Shown: positions 1,369 to 46,884 of the stretch, piece after piece | Layout: each line of letters opens with the position of its first letter | How positions within the stretch are numbered: position 1 is the stretch's first letter | Source: a virus | Length of the DNA stretch: 53,795 nucleotides | Virus genome (UHGV): UHGV-0191815 | Direction: 5' to 3' (one strand) | Position numbers and translations under genes: made by a program | The notes under the pieces: model-generated | Told to the model about the DNA's origin: nothing | Database searches by the model: none | The model's input: the letters and a program-made list of their open reading frames with translations, nothing else

Positions 1369-1395
1369 AACCCCGCTTCGCGCGGGGTTTTCTTT
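1369..1395. terminator. Bidirectional intrinsic terminator between the J-like gene and the convergent lipoprotein gene
   Basis: GC stem ccccgc/gcgggg (1371-1376, 1382-1387) with an A-run upstream and a T-run downstream. Confidence 0.55.
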
Positions 1396-1643
1396 TAGTA
1401 GTTAGCTACACAGTTCGACGGGCTACCGATGCGGCGCATGTTGTGATCGAGTTCATGACACCATTGCCCAGTATACGGCAGTTTTTCAGTGTCATAGACA
1501 AGATGACCGCTTCCATCATATACAACATCTTGTGGAATCACTCCGCTATTCGGCAGGTTATGCAATGCAGCCTCTTTGTCAACAGCACAGCCAGTAAGAG
1601 ATACAGCCGCAGCAAACAAAACCACTTTGAACACGTTTTTCAT
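1395..1643 (-). CDS. Small lipoprotein (82 aa); possibly a Cor-like superinfection-exclusion protein
   Basis: N-terminus MKNVFKVVLFAAAVSLTGC has a signal peptide and lipobox (LTG|C); it sits just after the receptor-binding tail genes on the opposite strand, the position Cor takes in FhuA-dependent phages. Confidence 0.55.
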   Translation of the reverse strand: MKNVFKVVLFAAAVSLTGCAVDKEAALHNLPNSGVIPQDVVYDGSGHLVYDTEKLPYTGQWCHELDHNMRRIGSPSNCVANY

Positions 1644-13603: not shown

Positions 13604-13909
13604 TGTGTTTTCTCCTATGGTTAAAATGAACGCGCTGGCGGGCATCCCATTATCATTAGATAGCAGTGATTGACCGCTGAACAGATCCCGCCGTTGCGTG
13701 ATATTTGTTTTTCGCATTGCAGCGACACCTGGTTTTTAAAGAGCTTTCAAGGTATGTGCCATTTGTGCTTTCCATTATCTTTTTTCTTGCATCCTTGCAA
13801 CTATGGCCTTACCTTGTCAGCAAGTTTACAGAATGTTGTTAATAGATCAAGGATTGAAAAATACATTTTGTGACTTGCATCAAAAATTTTTAGGTTATAG
13901 GGTAGCGAT
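13604..13909. promoter_or_regulatory. Divergent immunity-region control region (candidate operators and promoters for the repressor gene and the minus-strand early operon)
   Basis: About 300 bp non-coding between divergent HTH genes; contains atacattttgtgact (13861-13875), the palindromes ttgca-tcct-tgcaa and cttg-tcag-caag, and the nut-like element. Confidence 0.5.
13713..13750 (-). promoter_or_regulatory. nut-like element on the minus-strand transcript (boxA-like GCTCTTTAAAAA + hairpin CGCTGCAATGCG)
   Basis: Reverse complement reads agCTCTTTAAAAAccaggtgtCGCTGCAATGCG; near-identical to the plus-strand element at 22441-22474. Confidence 0.45.
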
Positions 13910-14557
13910 ATGAAAACAAAATGGTATGACTTGGCAAAACAACTCATGCGGGCGCAAGGCATGAGCCAGGATTCATTGGCTGATCTTATGGGGATAACCA
14001 AAGGTGGCCTTTCTCACTGGTTGAACGGTCGCCGTGAGCCGAATCTTGAAGATATTACGCGGATCATGCGGGCGCTTGGGCGTCGGCAATTCACTGTTAC
14101 TCATGATGGTATGGTCATTGATGATTCTGTTTCTAACACGTTGCCGGGAGCGCCACCGCGTGATTTAGGTAGTTACCCGGTTGTTGACTGGAAGGACGCA
14201 GCAAACAATATGGAAGACATACGCCGATCAACATTACCACACGTTACGACTAGCGTTATTTGTTCAGATGATAGTTACTGGCTGGTTGCTAAAGGTGAAT
14301 CAATGAACGCGCCGCAAGGGTTAAGCATCCCGGCGGGTACTATGATACTTGTTGACCCGCACGCGCCAGCTATTGATGGCAAACTGGTTATAGCCCAACT
14401 GGAGGAAGGGCAGACACCGACGTTTAAACAGTTGATTACTGATGGAGGCAGAAAACTTTTGCGTTCACTTAATCCGTTGTATCCTCCGATCCCTATGAAT
14501 CCAGAATCAAAAATCATTGGCGTGGTTGTTGATGCGAAGATCGTAAACCTGCCATAA
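13910..14557 (+). CDS. CI-like prophage repressor (HTH_XRE N-terminal domain + LexA-like S24 peptidase C-terminal domain)
   Basis: HTH (SQDSLADLMGITKGGLSHWLNGRR); C-terminal S24-type region (...LVAKGESMNAPQGLSIPAGTMILVD...KLVIAQLEEGQTPTFKQL) with Ser and Lys catalytic context. Confidence 0.85.
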   Translation: MKTKWYDLAKQLMRAQGMSQDSLADLMGITKGGLSHWLNGRREPNLEDITRIMRALGRRQFTVTHDGMVIDDSVSNTLPGAPPRDLGSYPVVDWKDAANNMEDIRRSTLPHVTTSVICSDDSYWLVAKGESMNAPQGLSIPAGTMILVDPHAPAIDGKLVIAQLEEGQTPTFKQLITDGGRKLLRSLNPLYPPIPMNPESKIIGVVVDAKIVNLP

Positions 14558-22344: not shown

Positions 22345-22366
22345 AATTTACAAAATGGCGTCATTG

Positions 22367-22382
22367 TGTGATTTGTGTCACA
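22367..22382. promoter_or_regulatory. Perfect palindrome TGTGA-tttgtg-TCACA (CRP-consensus-like, or a phage operator)
   Basis: Read directly; lies just upstream of a candidate promoter. Confidence 0.4.
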
Positions 22383-22398: not shown

Positions 22399-22427
22399 CT
22401 TGTTTACGTGTATCCATTTTGTATACT
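22399..22427 (+). promoter_or_regulatory. Candidate internal promoter (-35 cttgtt, -10 TATACT)
   Basis: -10 TATACT at 22422-22427 with a 17-bp spacer; overlaps ccattttgtatac, a copy of the recurring motif. Confidence 0.35.
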
Positions 22428-24816: not shown

Positions 24817-25078
24817 ATTAAAAGAACATATTTACCGCCAGTTGATTAACGAGCTTGCGGATACAGCCCGATATTACGCAGGAACACAACAGCTACGCGG
24901 GCGGCTATCTTCGGTTGTTAACCGCTATATTGATGCCGGATGTCATCGCAAAGGTGAAATCACGATGGACGAGGCCATCAAGCGCCGGACGGCTGAATGG
25001 TCAGTGAGTAACACCGGATTAACCGGATACATTGAAGGCTATAACGACTGTTTACAGGATCATAGCGATGGCAAGTAA
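24806..25078 (+). CDS. Hypothetical protein (90 aa)
   Basis: ORF in coupled series. Confidence 0.45.
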   Translation: MKPKLKEHIYRQLINELADTARYYAGTQQLRGRLSSVVNRYIDAGCHRKGEITMDEAIKRRTAEWSVSNTGLTGYIEGYNDCLQDHSDGK

Positions 25079-41658: not shown

Positions 41659-42135
41659 ATGTCTCAGACTTGTGAAAAAGGTTCGTTCTTAGGCCGTGAC
41701 GTTGCCGTATTTTACGCTATCGCCTGCCCTAAAACGAAACCTGAAGAAAGCGCTTATAAAGCGTTAGGCATGATGCGTGGCAAATCTCTTTCCGTAGAAT
41801 GGGAAACCGCAGACGCCACCGCTGATAAATCAGCAGACTATACCAAAGAATCATTGGTGACTTACAAATCTGTTGCCTTCTCCGGCGACGGCGTATCCCG
41901 CACCGAAGAGATCCACAACCAGAAAGCACTTAAACGCCACGTTATTAACCCTGGCGAAACAACTGGTGCGCAGCCTTACGTCTGGTTGAAACTCGTTTCA
42001 CCGCTTGATGTAACAGAGGGTCCGTTCCTTTGCACTTCCTTTAAGGAAGAAGATCCGCACGACGATGTGTCCACCTGGTCAATTGAGTGCGAAAGCGCTG
42101 GCAAGGTCACAGTAGGTGACGTTCCTGTATTGTAA
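41659..42135 (+). CDS. Putative major tail tube protein
   Basis: 158 aa; position upstream of the chaperone and tape measure genes; RBS agaggt. Confidence 0.45.
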   Translation: MSQTCEKGSFLGRDVAVFYAIACPKTKPEESAYKALGMMRGKSLSVEWETADATADKSADYTKESLVTYKSVAFSGDGVSRTEEIHNQKALKRHVINPGETTGAQPYVWLKLVSPLDVTEGPFLCTSFKEEDPHDDVSTWSIECESAGKVTVGDVPVL

Positions 42136-42189
42136 CAGTAAATATTGACATCGGGGCCGCTTGGCCCCTTTATTTTTAAGGTGACAACT

Positions 42190-42870
42190 ATGATTCACGT
42201 TCGAACAGGACAGTTTGCGGTTGTGGTTGATGGCAGACGTTACGAATTTAATCCCTGCTTTGCTGCAATGGCTAAGATCGGCAGTGACAGGGAACTGGTC
42301 GAATACTTCGCAACGGTTCACGGTGGCAGATACCCACGGCGTATGCCGATGGATACAGACCTCCGCAATCGCATTCTGGCGCGTTGTTATGGTGAACTGG
42401 TGCAAACGTCCATACACATATTGAAATGTTGCTCAGAATGCGAAATAGGCCCGTTATTGGGCGAATGCAGCTTTACTCCTTCTGGTAAGTTGAGACTGAA
42501 ACCTGGATTGATGCCCACCAGCGATGTTATCACGCTGGCGCAACACTGCATGTTCCACGGTTTAATTGGTGACGGTCCAGAAGAAGACACTGGAGAAAAC
42601 CAGGATGGCGAGTACAAGCCCACATTCGACATCCTTGAGTATGTTTATTCTGCCGTTGCTCACCTGGGATTGTCTGAGTCTGAAGCGTGGGGCATGACAA
42701 TGACCGGATATAGGGCCGCTGTACGCGCTAAAACGCCACCAGACGAAAGAAACGAGAAAGGTAAACCAAACGTTCATATAAATAAACGTGATTATGATGA
42801 GCAAATGGGAGCGGCTAAAAGGGTGCTGGAATTAATGAAAAAACGCGAGCAAGAAAAAGCCCGGAATTAA
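42190..42870 (+). CDS. Putative tail assembly chaperone (G/GT-like position)
   Basis: Position between the tail tube gene and the tape measure gene; no frameshift evident. Confidence 0.35.
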   Translation: MIHVRTGQFAVVVDGRRYEFNPCFAAMAKIGSDRELVEYFATVHGGRYPRRMPMDTDLRNRILARCYGELVQTSIHILKCCSECEIGPLLGECSFTPSGKLRLKPGLMPTSDVITLAQHCMFHGLIGDGPEEDTGENQDGEYKPTFDILEYVYSAVAHLGLSESEAWGMTMTGYRAAVRAKTPPDERNEKGKPNVHINKRDYDEQMGAAKRVLELMKKREQEKARN

Positions 42871-42884
42871 CCGGGCCTTTATCT

Positions 42885-43187
42885 TTATTTGTATGCTGCG
42901 AATCGGCATCTTGCTTCATCAAGGTCATGAACATCGTACACGTTATCGTAAATGTAAGTTGCTACCTGTGCTTTCTGTACGTCAGTTGCGTTCGGGAACT
43001 CCATGCTTACGAAAGTCACTGCATCAACGTAGTGTTTGAACATCTTTTTGTTAACGCACAGCGCGTAAATCAATACAGCAGGCCAGCAAATCAGCGCACC
43101 AAAGAATGCCAGGAGCATATTCAGATGTTTTTTCTGAGCTACAACCATAGTTGCGACGAAGCCGATGAAGCAAATTACCAGTTCCAT
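42885..43187 (-). CDS. Membrane protein (100 aa) in reverse-oriented cassette 1
   Basis: MELVICFIGFVATMVVAQKKHLNMLLAFFGALICWPAVLIYALCV (two TM segments) then a soluble tail. Confidence 0.5.
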   Translation of the reverse strand: MELVICFIGFVATMVVAQKKHLNMLLAFFGALICWPAVLIYALCVNKKMFKHYVDAVTFVSMEFPNATDVQKAQVATYIYDNVYDVHDLDEARCRFAAYK

Positions 43188-43197
43188 GATACACCTC

Positions 43198-43305
43198 TCA
43201 ATTGCGTTTATCTTCTGTTGTCATTGCCAGCACCAGCACAGCCATCACATTAAATGCTAACCATGCTGTAATATATACATCTATAACCGTTTTGATTGCG
43301 TCCAT
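43198..43305 (-). CDS. 35-aa TM peptide (cassette 1)
   Basis: MDAIKTVIDVYITAWLAFNVMAVLVLAMTTEDKRN. Confidence 0.3.
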   Translation of the reverse strand: MDAIKTVIDVYITAWLAFNVMAVLVLAMTTEDKRN

Positions 43306-43318
43306 TCACCCGCCCCGC

Positions 43319-43405
43319 TTATTTCTTGTTTTTAAGTGCTTTCAGCATTTCTTCGATAAAGTCGGCATAATGCTCATGCTCGTTGGGTCGGTAGTAGCCT
43401 TTCAT
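43319..43405 (-). CDS. 28-aa peptide (cassette 1)
   Basis: MKGYYRPNEHEHYADFIEEMLKALKNKK; RBS gaggataag. Confidence 0.3.
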   Translation of the reverse strand: MKGYYRPNEHEHYADFIEEMLKALKNKK

Positions 43406-43574
43406 TTTCTTATCCTCTTTTGCTTCCTCCGGTTCATCCGGTCTTTTAAATCCTTTTTCTGTTTCCTGTTAGTTTTAGGGGTTTTCGCCTCCCTCGTTCC
43501 TTCGGTTGGCTGTGCCTCAAGTCTTAATCCCTTATTCCTTCGACCTTCTTTTCTCTCTCTTCCTTTGACTTCTT

Positions 43575-43614
43575 TATACAAAATGTATACGTTGAAGTGA
43601 AGACATTTTGTATA
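43575..43614. promoter_or_regulatory. Pair of inverted palindromic motifs (TATACAAAATGTATAC and ACATTTTGTATA) flanking gttgaagtgaag
   Basis: Read directly; about 40 bp upstream of the tape measure start and upstream of minus-strand cassette 1. Confidence 0.5.
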
Positions 43615-43654
43615 AAATAGGGATCTGGATCACGCTTTTTAGTGAGGTAAAATC

Positions 43655-45994
43655 ATGTCGGGTAGTTTAGGTACAATCTATTACGAAGTTGATGCAAAAA
43701 CTGGTCAGCTTCTTGTCGCTCAGAGACAGGCAGACCAGGCTTTTGACAGCATCGAGCGTGGCGCAAAACGCGCTGACCGCCAGGTGAATACGCTTAAGAC
43801 TTCAATCAAAGCACTATCCAGGGTCATCCATCTGTTACTTGCTGCTGAGGCTGTGCGCCAGTTTATTGACATGGCGGAACAAGCAAAAATGCTTCGCGTA
43901 AAAATCAAACTGCTTACAGGTGAAGCGGAGGCCACGGAACGTGTTTTCAACAGACTGAAAGATATATCAAAAGAAACAGGCCAAAGCCTCGAGGATACTG
44001 GCGACCTGTGGCAAGGGCTTGCTATATCGCTAAAAAACACATCCGCTACAGAAGGCCAGGTCTTAAACCTGGTCAGCACGCTGCAAAAACTAGGCAACCT
44101 GGGCGGCGTGTCTGCGGAACAGCTATCTAACTCCATGCGCCAGTTCCGCCAGGCTATTGATGCTGGCGTGTTGCAGGCTGAAGAATTTAACTCAATACGT
44201 GACAACACACCAACAATCATACAGGAAATGGCCCGCCAAATGGGGTTATCAATGGGTCAGTTCCGCGCTGAAATGCTGGACGGTAAGATCACGGCTGAAA
44301 GGATGCTTAACGCGATCCAGGCCGCTACGCAGGAAACAAACGAGAAGTTCGCACAGTTGCCGCGCACATCAGACATGGCCTTCAACGAGCTAAAAGTTGA
44401 GGTGATGGGCTTTGTCGAACAGTTAGACGATCTTTTCGGCATATCAGATGGCGTTGTGTCAGCAATAGACTTAATCACTGGTGGCGCTGAGGGATTAGGT
44501 AAAGGCGCAAAATTCGCCGCAACCTGTTTCAACACACTGAAAACCGCTGGTAGCGAGTTCATCGACATGTTTGACGATGTTGCTGTTAAAGCTGGTGAGG
44601 TGGCGGAAGAAATCATCAGAATGGTGACGCCAATCAAGGCGCTAATGGATGGCTACAAATGGATGAAGGAAATCATTGACAAACGCAAGGAAGAGCTAAA
44701 CAGCAACAACGAGAAGAAATTTGGCCCTACCATTGGCAAATTTATGACATTCAAGAATGACATAGAAAAAGCCACAGCCGCCTATGATGAGTTTATGCAG
44801 AAACAGGGTGAGGCTGACGATGGCAAGATCACGGGATTCGATCAGCCAGTTGGTAAGCCGAAAAAAGGCAAAAAGAACAAGAAATCAGAAGCTGATCGGC
44901 TTGGTGATGAAGGTATAAAAGTCTCCGACCAGTACAACAAGGACGCCGCCGCCATGCGTAAGGCACTGGAGAACGGCAAGGCCATTGATGCTGCGTTCGC
45001 TCAGGGCAAAATAACCCTCCTTGAGTACAAGGCCGCGCAGAAAGGGATAGGCAAGGAACTGAAAGACGAATTGGCGCAAATACCTGTCGATGAGCTACGC
45101 GACAAATGGGACCACATAGTCAGCCCGATGGACCAGCTTAAGGGCGAAATTGACCCAATCAAGCAGGCGCAAAATGAATGGGCTGTTCGAAAACAAATGC
45201 TGATAGACCTGGGCGCTACAGAGGCGCAACAGAAACAGGCGCTATTGGAATACGAACAACAGATCCGGGATCTGAAATGGGAACAATGGCAGGCGCAAAG
45301 CGACACAAACGGCCTGATTGGTGCGTGCGTCAGCGGCCTGAAAGGTGGCATGGGTAATGCCCTTACCGGACTGCTAAACGGTACTCAATCGCTAAGTGAG
45401 GTTTTCGCCAACCTGGGAAGCAGCATACTCAATACTGTTGGCAATAAACTATCAGAAATTGCCGCTAACTGGATAGCAGATCAATTGATGATGGAAACGC
45501 AAAGCAAGGCTACACAGGCAAGTACAACGGCTGGCGCTGTTGCTGCCCAGGGTGAGATCGCGGCTGCTGCGGCCCCGGCGGCGGCGGCAACTGCTGCATC
45601 GACTGGCGGTAGCTGGGCGGCGGCTGGTGCTGCGGCGCTTTCTGCGATCATGTCACTGGCAACGTCAATTTTTGGTGGCGGGCGTTATAATGGTGGTTCT
45701 GTGAATGGTGGAAGTCTGTACCGCGTAGGTGAGCACGGGATTCCTGAGCTATTCCAGACGAGCAACGGGCGTCAGTATATGATTCCTGGCGAAAATGGTA
45801 GGGTAATTCCTGGCCGCGATCTCTTTAATGGTGGCGGCATCAATATGCCTGTTAACATCACCGTACAGACCACAAACGGATTTAGCGACGAAGACGGTCG
45901 CAGACTTGAACAGACGATGGAACGCGTAGCAATGAAAATGATGGCAAGGGAATCGCAACGACCTGGAGGAATGTTGCAACCGCGCCGCAAATAA
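43655..45994 (+). CDS. Tail tape measure protein
   Basis: 779 aa, alpha-helical, Ala/Gly-rich segments; position before the tail tip genes. Confidence 0.85.
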   Translation: MSGSLGTIYYEVDAKTGQLLVAQRQADQAFDSIERGAKRADRQVNTLKTSIKALSRVIHLLLAAEAVRQFIDMAEQAKMLRVKIKLLTGEAEATERVFNRLKDISKETGQSLEDTGDLWQGLAISLKNTSATEGQVLNLVSTLQKLGNLGGVSAEQLSNSMRQFRQAIDAGVLQAEEFNSIRDNTPTIIQEMARQMGLSMGQFRAEMLDGKITAERMLNAIQAATQETNEKFAQLPRTSDMAFNELKVEVMGFVEQLDDLFGISDGVVSAIDLITGGAEGLGKGAKFAATCFNTLKTAGSEFIDMFDDVAVKAGEVAEEIIRMVTPIKALMDGYKWMKEIIDKRKEELNSNNEKKFGPTIGKFMTFKNDIEKATAAYDEFMQKQGEADDGKITGFDQPVGKPKKGKKNKKSEADRLGDEGIKVSDQYNKDAAAMRKALENGKAIDAAFAQGKITLLEYKAAQKGIGKELKDELAQIPVDELRDKWDHIVSPMDQLKGEIDPIKQAQNEWAVRKQMLIDLGATEAQQKQALLEYEQQIRDLKWEQWQAQSDTNGLIGACVSGLKGGMGNALTGLLNGTQSLSEVFANLGSSILNTVGNKLSEIAANWIADQLMMETQSKATQASTTAGAVAAQGEIAAAAAPAAAATAASTGGSWAAAGAAALSAIMSLATSIFGGGRYNGGSVNGGSLYRVGEHGIPELFQTSNGRQYMIPGENGRVIPGRDLFNGGGINMPVNITVQTTNGFSDEDGRRLEQTMERVAMKMMARESQRPGGMLQPRRK

Positions 45995-45999
45995 TTAAA

Positions 46000-46030
46000 A
46001 CCCCGGTACAATGCCGGGGTTATCTTTATT
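46000..46030 (+). terminator. Terminator after the tape measure gene
   Basis: Stem accccgg / ccggggt with loop tacaatg, then T-rich tract. Confidence 0.55.
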
Positions 46031-46205
46031 CAATTTCATCATTCTTAAATTCGCCGTTTGCATAAAGCTGTAATGCGCTTATCAGTTCGTCGGCTTGCTT
46101 TTTGTCTATTACAATCATCTCGCAGTCGCTAACGATCCATAATCTTCCATCATCTTCAACACTAAGATCAATCCTTCTGCATTCTTCAGTCTCGTTAATA
46201 ATCAT
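46026..46205 (-). CDS. 59-aa acidic protein (cassette 2)
   Basis: MIINETEECRRIDLSVEDDGRLWIVSDCEMIVIDKKQADELISALQLYANGEFKNDEIE. Confidence 0.35.
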   Translation of the reverse strand: MIINETEECRRIDLSVEDDGRLWIVSDCEMIVIDKKQADELISALQLYANGEFKNDEIE

Positions 46206-46243
46206 TATAAACCTTCATTATTTTATTAATTTAGTGAATAAAT

Positions 46244-46414
46244 TTACTCAAATCTTGTATACCCTCTTTCAATTTTCCCTCCTCTTACACTTCTTGCGAA
46301 TACGGCATCTGTGTATCTGAAAAACGGTTCTTTGTATGTCTCGCCTTTACTATCCATCCATTTTAGCACCCATGCCATACGTTTTACATTGCTTTTATTT
46401 GCCGGGTTTTTCAT
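46244..46414 (-). CDS. 56-aa basic protein (cassette 2)
   Basis: MKNPANKSNVKRMAWVLKWMDSKGETYKEPFFRYTDAVFARSVRGGKIERGYTRFE. Confidence 0.35.
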   Translation of the reverse strand: MKNPANKSNVKRMAWVLKWMDSKGETYKEPFFRYTDAVFARSVRGGKIERGYTRFE

Positions 46415-46435
46415 TTTATTTTCCTCCGCAAATCA

Positions 46436-46525
46436 CAACCTGCCGTTTCTTGCTATGTAGCTGCGAGCAAACATCACCTGCCAGATGTTCCAGATCTCCC
46501 GCCATGTGAATTTATCGTCATCCAT
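46436..46525 (-). CDS. 29-aa peptide (cassette 2)
   Basis: MDDDKFTWREIWNIWQVMFARSYIARNGRL. Confidence 0.25.
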
Positions 46526-46533
46526 ATTTCACC

Positions 46534-46788
46534 TCATTTATGCGCACCTTTTACGCCACAGTGGCGGTTGTATTCCAGATGGTCAATAATTAACCACATC
46601 TTTAAATCTTCGCTGAATAACCGCCAATCGGGGTTGATGTCAAATTTATAGCCGTAGCCATCGCGTAATTTTTTGGGGTTGGCCTCTTTTTTCAGGAAAG
46701 AATTTAATAAAGCCTTGCCTTTCTTGATGATCCGTTCCTGGGCGTTTTTCTGTGCTTTCAGGTTTTTGCTAATCATTACCAATTTCAT
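46534..46788 (-). CDS. 84-aa basic protein (cassette 2)
   Basis: MKLVMISKNLKAQKNAQERIIKKGKALLNSFLKKEANPKKLRDGYGYKFDINPDWRLFSEDLKMWLIIDHLEYNRHCGVKGAHK; RBS aaaggggga. Confidence 0.5.
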   Translation of the reverse strand: MKLVMISKNLKAQKNAQERIIKKGKALLNSFLKKEANPKKLRDGYGYKFDINPDWRLFSEDLKMWLIIDHLEYNRHCGVKGAHK

Positions 46789-46826: not shown

Positions 46827-46884
46827 CTGTATACAATATGTAATTGCCGAAGTGAAGCCATTTTGAAAACTAGCTATAATCATT
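46827..46884. promoter_or_regulatory. Palindromic motif ctgTATACAATATGTAa plus candidate plus-strand promoter for the tail tip operon (-35 GTGAAG, -10 TATAAT)
   Basis: -10 TATAAT at 46875-46880 with a 17-bp spacer; motif 46830-46842; gaagtgaag box shared with the site at 43591-43600. Confidence 0.45.

Follow-up and report, generated by a model that had tools for sequence, protein, structure and literature searches.

A probable accessory operon in a conserved reverse-oriented slot within the tail module of an mEpimmI coliphage

The virus genome UHGV-0191815, analysed here over its full length of 53,795 nucleotides (nt; hereafter called the “window”), carries at positions 42885–43654 a small cassette of minus-strand genes, together with its upstream region, between two plus-strand tail genes. 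The section 42100–44100 matches seven phage records at 78–95% identity: mEp554 (95%), mEp044, mEp010, mEp021, MagusPhagus, mEp515, and mEp013. By its sequence, the 53.8-kb window is an mEpimmI (mEp021-like) temperate coliphage. The mEpimmI group consists of Nus-dependent, non-lambdoid temperate coliphages, which are reported to equal lambdoid phages in frequency in a human faecal collection (PMC11893012). The paper describing the group leaves the cassette locus undiscussed, and its supplements hold nothing on gp62–64 (PMC11893012). The 5′ neighbour of the slot is a plus-strand gene of unknown function, DUF6246 / PHROG 791 (42145–42870), and the other neighbour is the plus-strand tape-measure gene (43655–45994). 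The preliminary description of this region had called the former a tail chaperone gene; it does follow the tail-tube gene and lie in the chaperone position, between the tube and tape-measure genes, while the label itself is borrowed from that position. With plus-strand tail genes on both sides of a minus-strand cassette, the layout is that of a noncontiguous operon.

Three genes are encoded on the minus strand, at the coordinates first proposed for them. The first cistron is a 28-amino-acid (aa) micro-ORF (open reading frame; 43319–43405, MKGYYRPNEHEHYADFIEEMLKALKNKK), whose product is hydrophilic with an amphipathic helix pattern at its C-terminus. It is followed by the gene for a 35-aa single-pass membrane peptide (43198–43305, MDAIKTVIDVYITAWLAFNVMAVLVLAMTTEDKRN), which lies directly upstream of the gene for a 100-aa protein (42885–43187) with two N-terminal transmembrane (TM) helices and a helical C-terminal domain of about 55 residues. 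The cistrons are closely spaced: 13 nt separate the stop codon of the micro-ORF from the ATG of the 35-aa gene, and the 10 nt between the 35-aa and 100-aa genes contain the sequence GAGGTG, a Shine–Dalgarno (SD) sequence 5 nt upstream of the ATG. Each of the three cistrons has its own SD. The Kyte–Doolittle profile agrees with the two TM segments predicted earlier for the 100-aa product and the one predicted for the 35-aa product, with hydrophobic stretches at residues 1–19 and 21–46 of the former, residues 10–30 of the latter, and none in the 28-aa product.

In order to compare the locus between phages, 44 relatives (phages and prophages; 13 from GenBank/RefSeq and 31 from IMG/VR) were gathered by BLAST (13), from IMG/VR with a back-translated micro-ORF pattern (17), and with an inverted-repeat pattern (15). 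The ratio of nonsynonymous to synonymous substitution rates (dN/dS, ω) was calculated by the Nei–Gojobori method against cassettes of 83–95% nucleotide identity from six relatives, mEp554, mEp044, and E. coli N921, N1286, strain 127, and UMNK88. It is 0.04–0.14 for the 100-aa gene, 0.05–0.27 for the 35-aa gene, and, among pairs with differing sequences, 0.0–0.21 for the micro-ORF, the last range resting on at most seven synonymous and zero to five nonsynonymous differences per pair. In the six-frame control over the 100-aa gene, low ω together with zero internal stops is found in the gene frame only. All three minus-strand ORFs, with ratios of 0.0–0.27, are real genes under purifying selection.

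The plus strand also contains open frames across the cassette, and the PHANOTATE annotations of mEp554 and mEp044 (PP180005 and PP180004) place plus-strand coding sequences (CDSs) at the homologous position. The frame 43202–43600 is open in the window and is not conserved: in UMNK88, whose copy of this cassette is 83% identical, no plus-strand open frame exceeds 61 codons, which bears out the preliminary description of this ORF as an artefact. The antisense ORF 42927–43253, which overlies the 100-aa gene, has an ω of about 1–1.5, and stop codons arise in it in relatives. Moreover, the RefSeq PGAP pipeline chooses the minus-strand 100-aa gene in every prophage examined. The chance that either plus-strand ORF is a real gene is therefore practically nil, and the plus-strand CDSs of the two records appear to be mis-annotations because their frames are neither conserved nor under selection. 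The CDSs concerned lie over the cassette or its leader at 2328–2603 and 2694–2879 in L001 (mEp554), at 1699–1878 in L009 (mEp044), and at 2798–2899 in L003 (mEp010), and are probably erroneous in all three. The mEp554 record also omits the 100-aa and 35-aa genes, and the micro-ORF is omitted in L001, L009, and L003. PHANOTATE did annotate the 35-aa gene in mEp044, and the micro-ORF is annotated as a CDS only in mEp515. The locus is thus unannotated or mis-annotated in the mEpimmI records, and the present analysis adds two real micro-proteins, of 28 and 35 aa, of a kind that gene callers usually miss. A search of genome contigs with a degenerate DNA pattern for the micro-ORF returned 49 loci, which appear to be chance matches in unrelated taxa, none of them enterobacterial.

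How is the slot organised in other phages? Minus-strand genes occupy it in 44 of the 44 relatives, and it is never empty. The upstream part was aligned in 29 sequences found without the inverted repeat as bait, with the BLAST relative mEp013 excluded as unalignable there. In this alignment, the arms of the inverted repeat, the start of the leader, its small hairpin, the SD, and the micro-ORF are nearly invariant, and variation is seen at the synonymous sites of the micro-ORF and in the spacer of the repeat. The micro-ORF is present as a 27–29-aa ORF in 38 of the 44 relatives, whatever genes follow it. The other six lack both the micro-ORF and the hairpin, and a shorter leader runs directly into the downstream genes. 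Past the micro-ORF stop codon, the sequence differs completely between phages: the homology between the window and mEp021 ends at about 43287, where the downstream genes start, and at least five unrelated gene sets take the place of the segment 42885 to about 43305 among the 44 relatives. The 35+100-aa pair is therefore one of at least six interchangeable “cargoes”.

These cargoes can be described as follows. Cargo A is the 35+100-aa pair, found in 16 relatives. Cargo B is a 137/138-aa protein with a signal peptide, of the mEp021_63 type, and cargo C is a 116/119-aa secreted protein, also with a signal peptide, which is sometimes followed by A. Cargo D comprises a 203–219-aa VasI/TagO-like lipoprotein (Pfam PF11319, 2e-16) accompanied either by a 124-aa lipoprotein, which has a sub-threshold BamE-like match, or by a 106-aa protein. 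Cargo E is a 165-aa secreted protein with a signal peptide, cargo F consists of a 60-aa protein and a 245-aa lipoprotein, and mEp013 carries a 59-aa membrane protein with the same 124-aa lipoprotein. Lipoboxes thus occur in the alternative cargo of sister phages; no lipobox ([LVI][ASTVI][GAS]C) and no signal peptide is present in the 100-aa or 35-aa sequence. The alignments show a fixed “dock” whose cargo is exchangeable and almost invariably an envelope protein. The dock comprises the inverted repeat with its candidate promoter, the purine-rich leader, and usually the micro-ORF, and at the downstream end a bidirectional terminator. By this comparison, the conserved core of the locus is the repeat, the leader, and the 28-aa micro-ORF, not the membrane protein. 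The replacement of genes between conserved flanks and the sequence-predicted terminator are features of a moron in the sense of Juhala and Hendrix.

One detail concerns the borders of the cargo. The otherwise unrelated 138-aa (L002, L003, and L007) and 116-aa (L006 and L023) cargo proteins have a near-identical signal peptide, MKRLIKAA.MAVMV.LAFNANA, an indication that the breakpoints of cargo exchange may fall within the signal sequence.

The inverted repeat at the head of the dock, TTTATACAAAATGT / ACATTTTGTATAAA (43573–43586 and 43603–43616), has 14-nt arms of 100% complementarity and a 16-nt spacer. As first described, it is an inverted pair; the window has no second perfect inverted repeat with arms of 13 nt or longer and a loop of up to 40 nt, and 60 dinucleotide shuffles gave a mean of 0.03. 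A candidate σ70 promoter for leftward transcription can be read within it, at 43573–43601 on the minus strand, with the –35 hexamer TTCACT (43601–43596), a 17-nt spacer, and the –10 hexamer TATAAA (43578–43573). TTCACT-17-TATAAA fits 9 of 12 consensus positions, and we infer a transcription start near 43566. In this arrangement, one repeat arm contributes the candidate –10 element, and the other lies at about –38 to –51, the position of an UP element or an operator. The candidate promoter is nearly invariant in the 29 aligned relatives. Whereas the repeat arms are invariant among relatives, the spacer and the –35 hexamer vary (TTCACT, TTTACT, TTCATT, TTTGCT, TTCAGT).

Paralogues of the element lie upstream of, and aimed at, other accessory genes, at 46.84 kb, at 27.85 kb, and in locus L031, and in these paralogues the complementarity of the two arms is not kept. 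In addition, the half-site CATTTTGTATA occurs 13 times in the window with at most one mismatch, compared with 1.8 occurrences expected, and several copies read TATACT, a proper –10 hexamer. The copies are mostly intergenic; a crude enrichment test counts 5 of 13 as intergenic (p = 0.0045), which is a lower bound, as the greedy gene model counts spurious ORFs over known intergenic sites. The repeat motif thus recurs at other regulatory or accessory-gene sites of the same genome.

The repeat also bears on a different explanation of the locus, namely that the cassette has a lytic role in tail assembly, tape-measure handling, or genome ejection, and that the repeat mainly gives the tape-measure gene a promoter or an RNA hairpin. 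The site does lie within the tail module, a 14-bp stem can form in the plus-strand RNA just upstream of the tape-measure SD, and a weak rightward element, TTGAAG-15-TAAAAT, is readable. However, the stability of this plus-strand fold is not significant against shuffles (z = −1.67), and the non-complementary arms of the paralogues argue against an RNA hairpin. Because the arms are fixed while the spacer and the –35 hexamer vary, and because the paralogue arms are not complementary, a function at the DNA level fits the repeat better, either as a –10 hexamer with an UP-like element or as an operator for a dimeric factor. Moreover, the cassette is oriented opposite to all of the tail genes, and the viable sisters mEp021, mEp010, mEp515, and mEp013 carry unrelated cargo. 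The mEp021 record labels some genes nearby “virion structural protein” and the slot gene mEp021_63 “hypothetical protein”, which points away from a virion component. We therefore regard a lytic role as very improbable.

Some sites of the element and its neighbourhood deserve description in their own right. The tape-measure gene is separated from the tail gene that follows it by a second reverse cassette (46026–46788, minus strand). This cassette contains four small non-membrane ORFs (84, 30, 56, and 59 aa; GC content 0.34–0.44), for which no NCBIfam match was found, and a bidirectional terminator at about 46000–46025; upstream of it, at 46830–46870, lies the promoter-element paralogue AAAATGGCTTCACTTC...CATATTGTATACA (TTCACT-17-TATACA). 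A copy of the whole inverted-repeat module (GATCACGCTTTT ... TATACGAAATGG ... CCGTTTTGTTATAAAGAAG) is found at 27790–27900 between two plus-strand small genes, aimed at a 90-aa gene that starts at 27899. In some relatives (L004, L006, L008, L011, and L012), a 24–31-aa ORF (MSLFYTKWLHFNEYILYKE...) spans the repeat at an offset of 27 from the tape-measure start; it is also present in L031 (1608–1703), which differs synonymously from the others. It is probably not a gene, as it has no start codon in the window, mEp554, or mEp021. Between the repeat and the tape-measure gene, a short conserved stretch (43617–43654, plus strand) contains GATC sites, an invariant ATCAC, and the SD GAGG. A Dam/GATC switch at this place is unlikely, since the number of GATC sites ranges from 0 to 2 among relatives.

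Between the micro-ORF start and the tape-measure gene, the gap 43406–43654 measures 249 bp, in agreement with the roughly 250-bp pyrimidine-rich region noticed at the outset. The skewed part is 43406–43572, which is 77.8% pyrimidine on the plus strand (A 8%, C 30%, G 14%, T 48%) and would form a purine-rich leader, the putative 5′ untranslated region, on the minus strand; its SD, GAGGA (43413–43417), lies 7 nt before the micro-ORF ATG. No other segment of this length in the 53.8 kb is as strand-skewed as the 167 nt that begin at 43398 (genome mean 47%, standard deviation (sd) 6%; 0.02% of segments as extreme). As an upstream region of the minus-strand genes, the leader is conserved in the 29-relative alignment; about 91 nt of it (net; approximately 43463–43559) is an insertion shared with only 5 of the 44 relatives. 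This expansion is present in the window, UMNK88 (L029), L025, and L086, is absent from other relatives, and occurs with three cargo sets: A (35+100 aa), B (138 aa), and C followed by A (116 aa plus the pair). Leaders with the expansion measure 166–168 nt, that of the window being 166 nt long, and those without it 74–76 nt. The leader also contains the small hairpin motif CCGGAUGAACCGG (43429–43441), in which the CCGG/CCGG stem is kept and the loop varies (U, G, or A).

RNA that is poor in pyrimidine forms little structure and is a poor substrate for Rho. The minus-strand leader fold is no stabler than shuffles (z = −0.05), which leaves a structured leader or riboswitch unsupported. An Rfam scan of 42700–43800 (E ≤ 10) returned only sub-threshold matches, with E > 1 and far under the gathering scores, all of them at the terminator save a weak rseX match over the micro-ORF. 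A CsrA-type reading of the leader was likewise rejected: its seven GGA triplets compare with 4.6 ± 1.3 in dinucleotide shuffles (71 of 1000 reach at least as many), and the GGA positions are not significantly less variable than others (Fisher p = 0.19). On the opposite strand, the complement of the leader in the late transcript is C-rich and G-poor and resembles a Rho-loading site. Late transcription therefore probably needs antitermination to cross the leader.

At its downstream end, the cassette is closed by a bidirectional intrinsic terminator read from the sequence, the hairpin GCCCGG-AATTAA-CCGGGC (42859–42876) with T-runs on both strands, 8 nt past the stop codon of the 100-aa gene. The convergent DUF6246 gene has its stop codon (42868–42870) in the loop of this hairpin. 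The terminator scan called the plus-strand terminator and a second, minus-strand hairpin at 42863–42846, and the records of mEp010, mEp021, mEp554, mEp515, and mEp013 carry ARNold or TERM terminator annotations at the corresponding place, for one strand or for both. With minus-strand genes, a conserved upstream block, and a downstream terminator, the cassette is self-contained and, as proposed in the preliminary description, reverse-oriented. A further, strong terminator-like hairpin, GGGGCC-GCTT-GGCCCC followed by TTTATTTTTA, lies at 42153–42168 on the plus strand, between the tail-tube and DUF6246 genes. HK97 likewise has putative terminators around its major tail gene. The 42153–42168 hairpin implies that late transcription involves read-through or antitermination.

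Next, we consider the proteins of cargo A. A word-indexed search of 5.8 billion proteins with the 100-aa protein returned eight clusters, all at least 69% identical, and a profile search of 1.84 billion representatives returned three, with no chromosomal homologue among these representatives. By these searches, the 100-aa protein is an orphan family confined to these phages. Its AlphaFold2 (AF2) model, of medium confidence (predicted local distance difference test score 72.7), has helices at residues 2–19, 24–63, 69–82, and 86–95: two N-terminal helices, with a long helix extending out of TM2, and two short C-terminal helices. The most conserved stretch, WPxVLIYALCVNK, is invariant and lies at the end of TM2, which suggests a specific contact within the membrane or at its edge. 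The sole distant homologue is P0009 (122 aa, E 3e-20), encoded by a reverse-oriented gene between the tube and DUF6246 genes of another phage. The P0009 gene has neither the 35-aa partner nor the micro-ORF and lies behind the same inverted-repeat element, TATACAAAATGG-N-CATTTTGTATAAAGAAGCC. The promoter-like element and a gene of the 100-aa family therefore travel together, as a moron would.

The 35-aa gene accompanies the 100-aa gene in 16 of the 16 relatives with this cargo, which are all of the E. coli phage relatives that have it. This strict co-occurrence, and the single-pass nature of such a small peptide, would also suit a membrane toxin with the 100-aa protein as its modulator, whether in a module for abortive infection or addiction or as a holin-like pair. 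The 35-aa gene, however, is a middle cistron with a strong SD and is not separately controlled, neither an antisense RNA nor a long structured leader was seen in the Rfam scan and the leader fold, and the products have no match to a holin, toxin, or defence family. Moreover, the distant homologue P0009 has no such partner. A toxin pair is accordingly quite improbable.

What might the membrane pair do? A first pointer comes from another gene of the same genome. The window encodes an 82-aa lipoprotein (MKNVFKVVLFAAAVSLTGC...; 1395–1643, minus strand, with its upstream region extending to about 1800) between the J-like tail-tip and tail-fibre genes, followed by a hairpin terminator. This protein is 98.8% identical to the type-C lipoprotein of mEp010 (Lpp010), which was experimentally found to exclude mEp010, mEp044, mEp554, and lambda (PMC11893012 section 3.7). 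The two leaders have in common the 15-mer ACCGGATGAACCGGA, which lies at 1671–1685 before lpp and is followed there by a similar SD and the start ATGAAAAACGT (first four codons). Local alignment of the cassette and lpp upstream regions scores 48, compared with 25 ± 4.6 for shuffles, a difference of about 5 sd. The Lpp proteins of the mEpimmI group (Lpp021 and Lpp010; PMC11893012) thus resemble the cassette in belonging to the same phages, in being reverse-oriented in the tail region and hairpin-terminated, and in having a leader with the CCGGATGAACCGG hairpin, an SD, and the ATGAAAAACGT start. Unlike the cassette proteins, they have a lipobox (LTGC) and a site between J-like and tail-fibre genes, and their exclusion activity is experimentally shown, whereas a function for the cassette is suggested by analogy. 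A third copy of CCGGAT(T)AACCGG, at 25013–25027, falls within a coding region and is probably there by chance.

A second pointer is the position of the slot. HK97 gp15 (YebO-like; Juhala 2000, Cumby 2012/2015) is a small inner-membrane exclusion protein that blocks genome injection in a tail-dependent manner (PMC3594210). Like the cassette, HK97 gene 15, which is the archetypal moron, follows the chaperone-position gene and immediately precedes the tape-measure gene, is flanked by a terminator, encodes a small inner-membrane protein, and is absent or replaced in sister phages. It differs in being a single 62-aa gene of the YebO family on the strand of the tail genes, whereas the cassette is antisense, has three cistrons, and follows a conserved leader and micro-ORF.

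A third comparison concerns regulation. In phi80, the defence gene taiEcA lies antisense inside the late operon, and late transcription has been proposed to switch it off (PMC11364771). The cassette shares with phi80 taiEcA/atiEcA this antisense position and, by analogy, might likewise be expressed in the lysogen and shut down by late transcription. The Tai proteins, unlike what is proposed for the cassette, block tail assembly of other phages and are mostly encoded upstream of packaging genes; they are unrelated to the cassette proteins in sequence, and the cassette showed no counter-defence partner.

Small phage-encoded inner-membrane proteins that block DNA entry are also exemplified by T4 Imm and P22 SieA, the analogy to which the preliminary description pointed. 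Their genomic context differs from that of the cassette, which has no Pfam, PHROG, or PADLOC match to them. Profile searches, and hhalign against gp15, found no homology to Imm, Sie, or gp15 proteins, and by any profile the cassette is not of the Imm, SieA, or Cor/Llp type.

Taken together, we propose that the locus is a moron-type accessory operon in a conserved reverse expression slot of the mEpimmI phages, with superinfection exclusion as its likeliest function. This combined statement seems to us probable on balance, a judgement that blends two quite different ones. That the architecture is that of an accessory operon is highly probable, while exclusion as the function, which is drawn from analogy, is a tentative assignment that falls just short of an even chance. 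Exclusion at DNA entry is our best guess because HK97 gene 15 occupies the same slot, the lpp leader is related, and the cargo is consistently an envelope protein.

The same architecture could instead carry genes that serve the host in another way, through envelope or stress physiology, protection against colicins or type VI secretion, or virulence, in the manner of lambda Bor and Lom. Morons have a wide range of functions (PMC3594210), PADLOC returned no matches, and the sister cargo includes the VasI/TagO-like, type VI-associated lipoprotein and the sub-threshold BamE-like lipoprotein, which are not classic exclusion proteins. Against such a host service stand the tape-measure-adjacent position, which matches that of HK97 gp15 (PMC3594210), the regulatory module held in common with the proven exclusion gene lpp, and the confinement of the 100-aa family to these phages. 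We consider host service unlikely, though a rival to be taken seriously.

Several observations also weigh against the proposal of an accessory exclusion operon as a whole. A consensus promoter scan called nothing in 42000–44200; the candidate was missed because TATAAA lacks the highly conserved T at position 6, and for this reason the promoter is treated here as inferred. The paralogy between the cassette and lpp leaders is modest, 1 of 300 shuffles having reached a score of 52. The hhalign comparison with gp15/YebO gave a probability of 0.6%, with no Pfam YebO match at E ≤ 1. None of the 100-, 35-, and 28-aa products has a Pfam, PHROG, NCBIfam, or PADLOC match, and a Foldseek search of BFVD and the PDB with the 100-aa model found nothing with E < 0.03. 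The topology of the 100-aa protein is ambiguous, with positive charge both in the inter-helix loop (KK) and after TM2 (KK..K). The GC content of the cassette (0.43–0.45) differs only slightly from that of the flanks (0.48–0.50). Finally, since the slot is never empty, the cassette is not “more DNA” in the strict sense.

On the proposal of an accessory exclusion operon, the following sequence of events seems the most likely. In the lysogen, transcription would start at the TTCACT-17-TATAAA element within the repeat and run leftward. The unstructured, pyrimidine-poor leader and its strong SD would load ribosomes on the 28-aa cistron, and the cargo would be translated through coupling. The single-pass 35-aa and two-pass 100-aa proteins would then insert as a pair into the inner membrane, where they would most likely block the genome entry of incoming related phages at an inner-membrane, tape-measure-dependent step, as HK97 gp15 does from the corresponding slot. 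During lytic growth, antiterminated late transcription would cross the cassette in the antisense direction and silence it, as in a noncontiguous operon and by analogy with phi80 taiEcA.

A more far-reaching interpretation is that the dock is a dedicated, regulated expression site for exchangeable envelope genes, with CATTTTGTATA as a co-ordinating operator or promoter and a micro-protein that is itself functional. The CATTTTGTATA sites concerned would be those of the lpp cassette, this cassette, the cassette after the tape-measure gene, and the site at 27.8 kb. The micro-protein might then regulate the insertion or stability of the cargo, or act in a switch between lysogenic and late expression, rather than being a mere coupling cistron. 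We put this forward as a speculative possibility, with the odds clearly against it.

As a prophage accessory cassette, the locus is of an ordinary kind; what distinguishes it is the orphan membrane pair and an unusually conserved dock with a real 28-aa gene. The dock with its exchangeable envelope cargo is a compact natural example of prophages shuffling host-modifying genes. If exclusion proves true, the pair would be a second, sequence-unrelated case of a tape-measure-adjacent membrane protein that guards inner-membrane DNA entry, and would give a starting point for learning how tape-measure proteins pass through that membrane.

Two further sites of the window may be mentioned. A motif related to the repeat, AATACATTTTGTGAC (13858–13872), lies about 40 bp upstream of a CI-like repressor gene (13910–14557), a hint that the ACATTTTGT element may be generally present in the promoters or operators of this phage. 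The intergenic region ahead of the NinG gene contains a perfect CRP-type core, TGTGA-TTTGTG-TCACA (22367–22382), flanked by two inverted CATTTTGTA(T/A)A motifs at 22347–22357 and 22415–22425.

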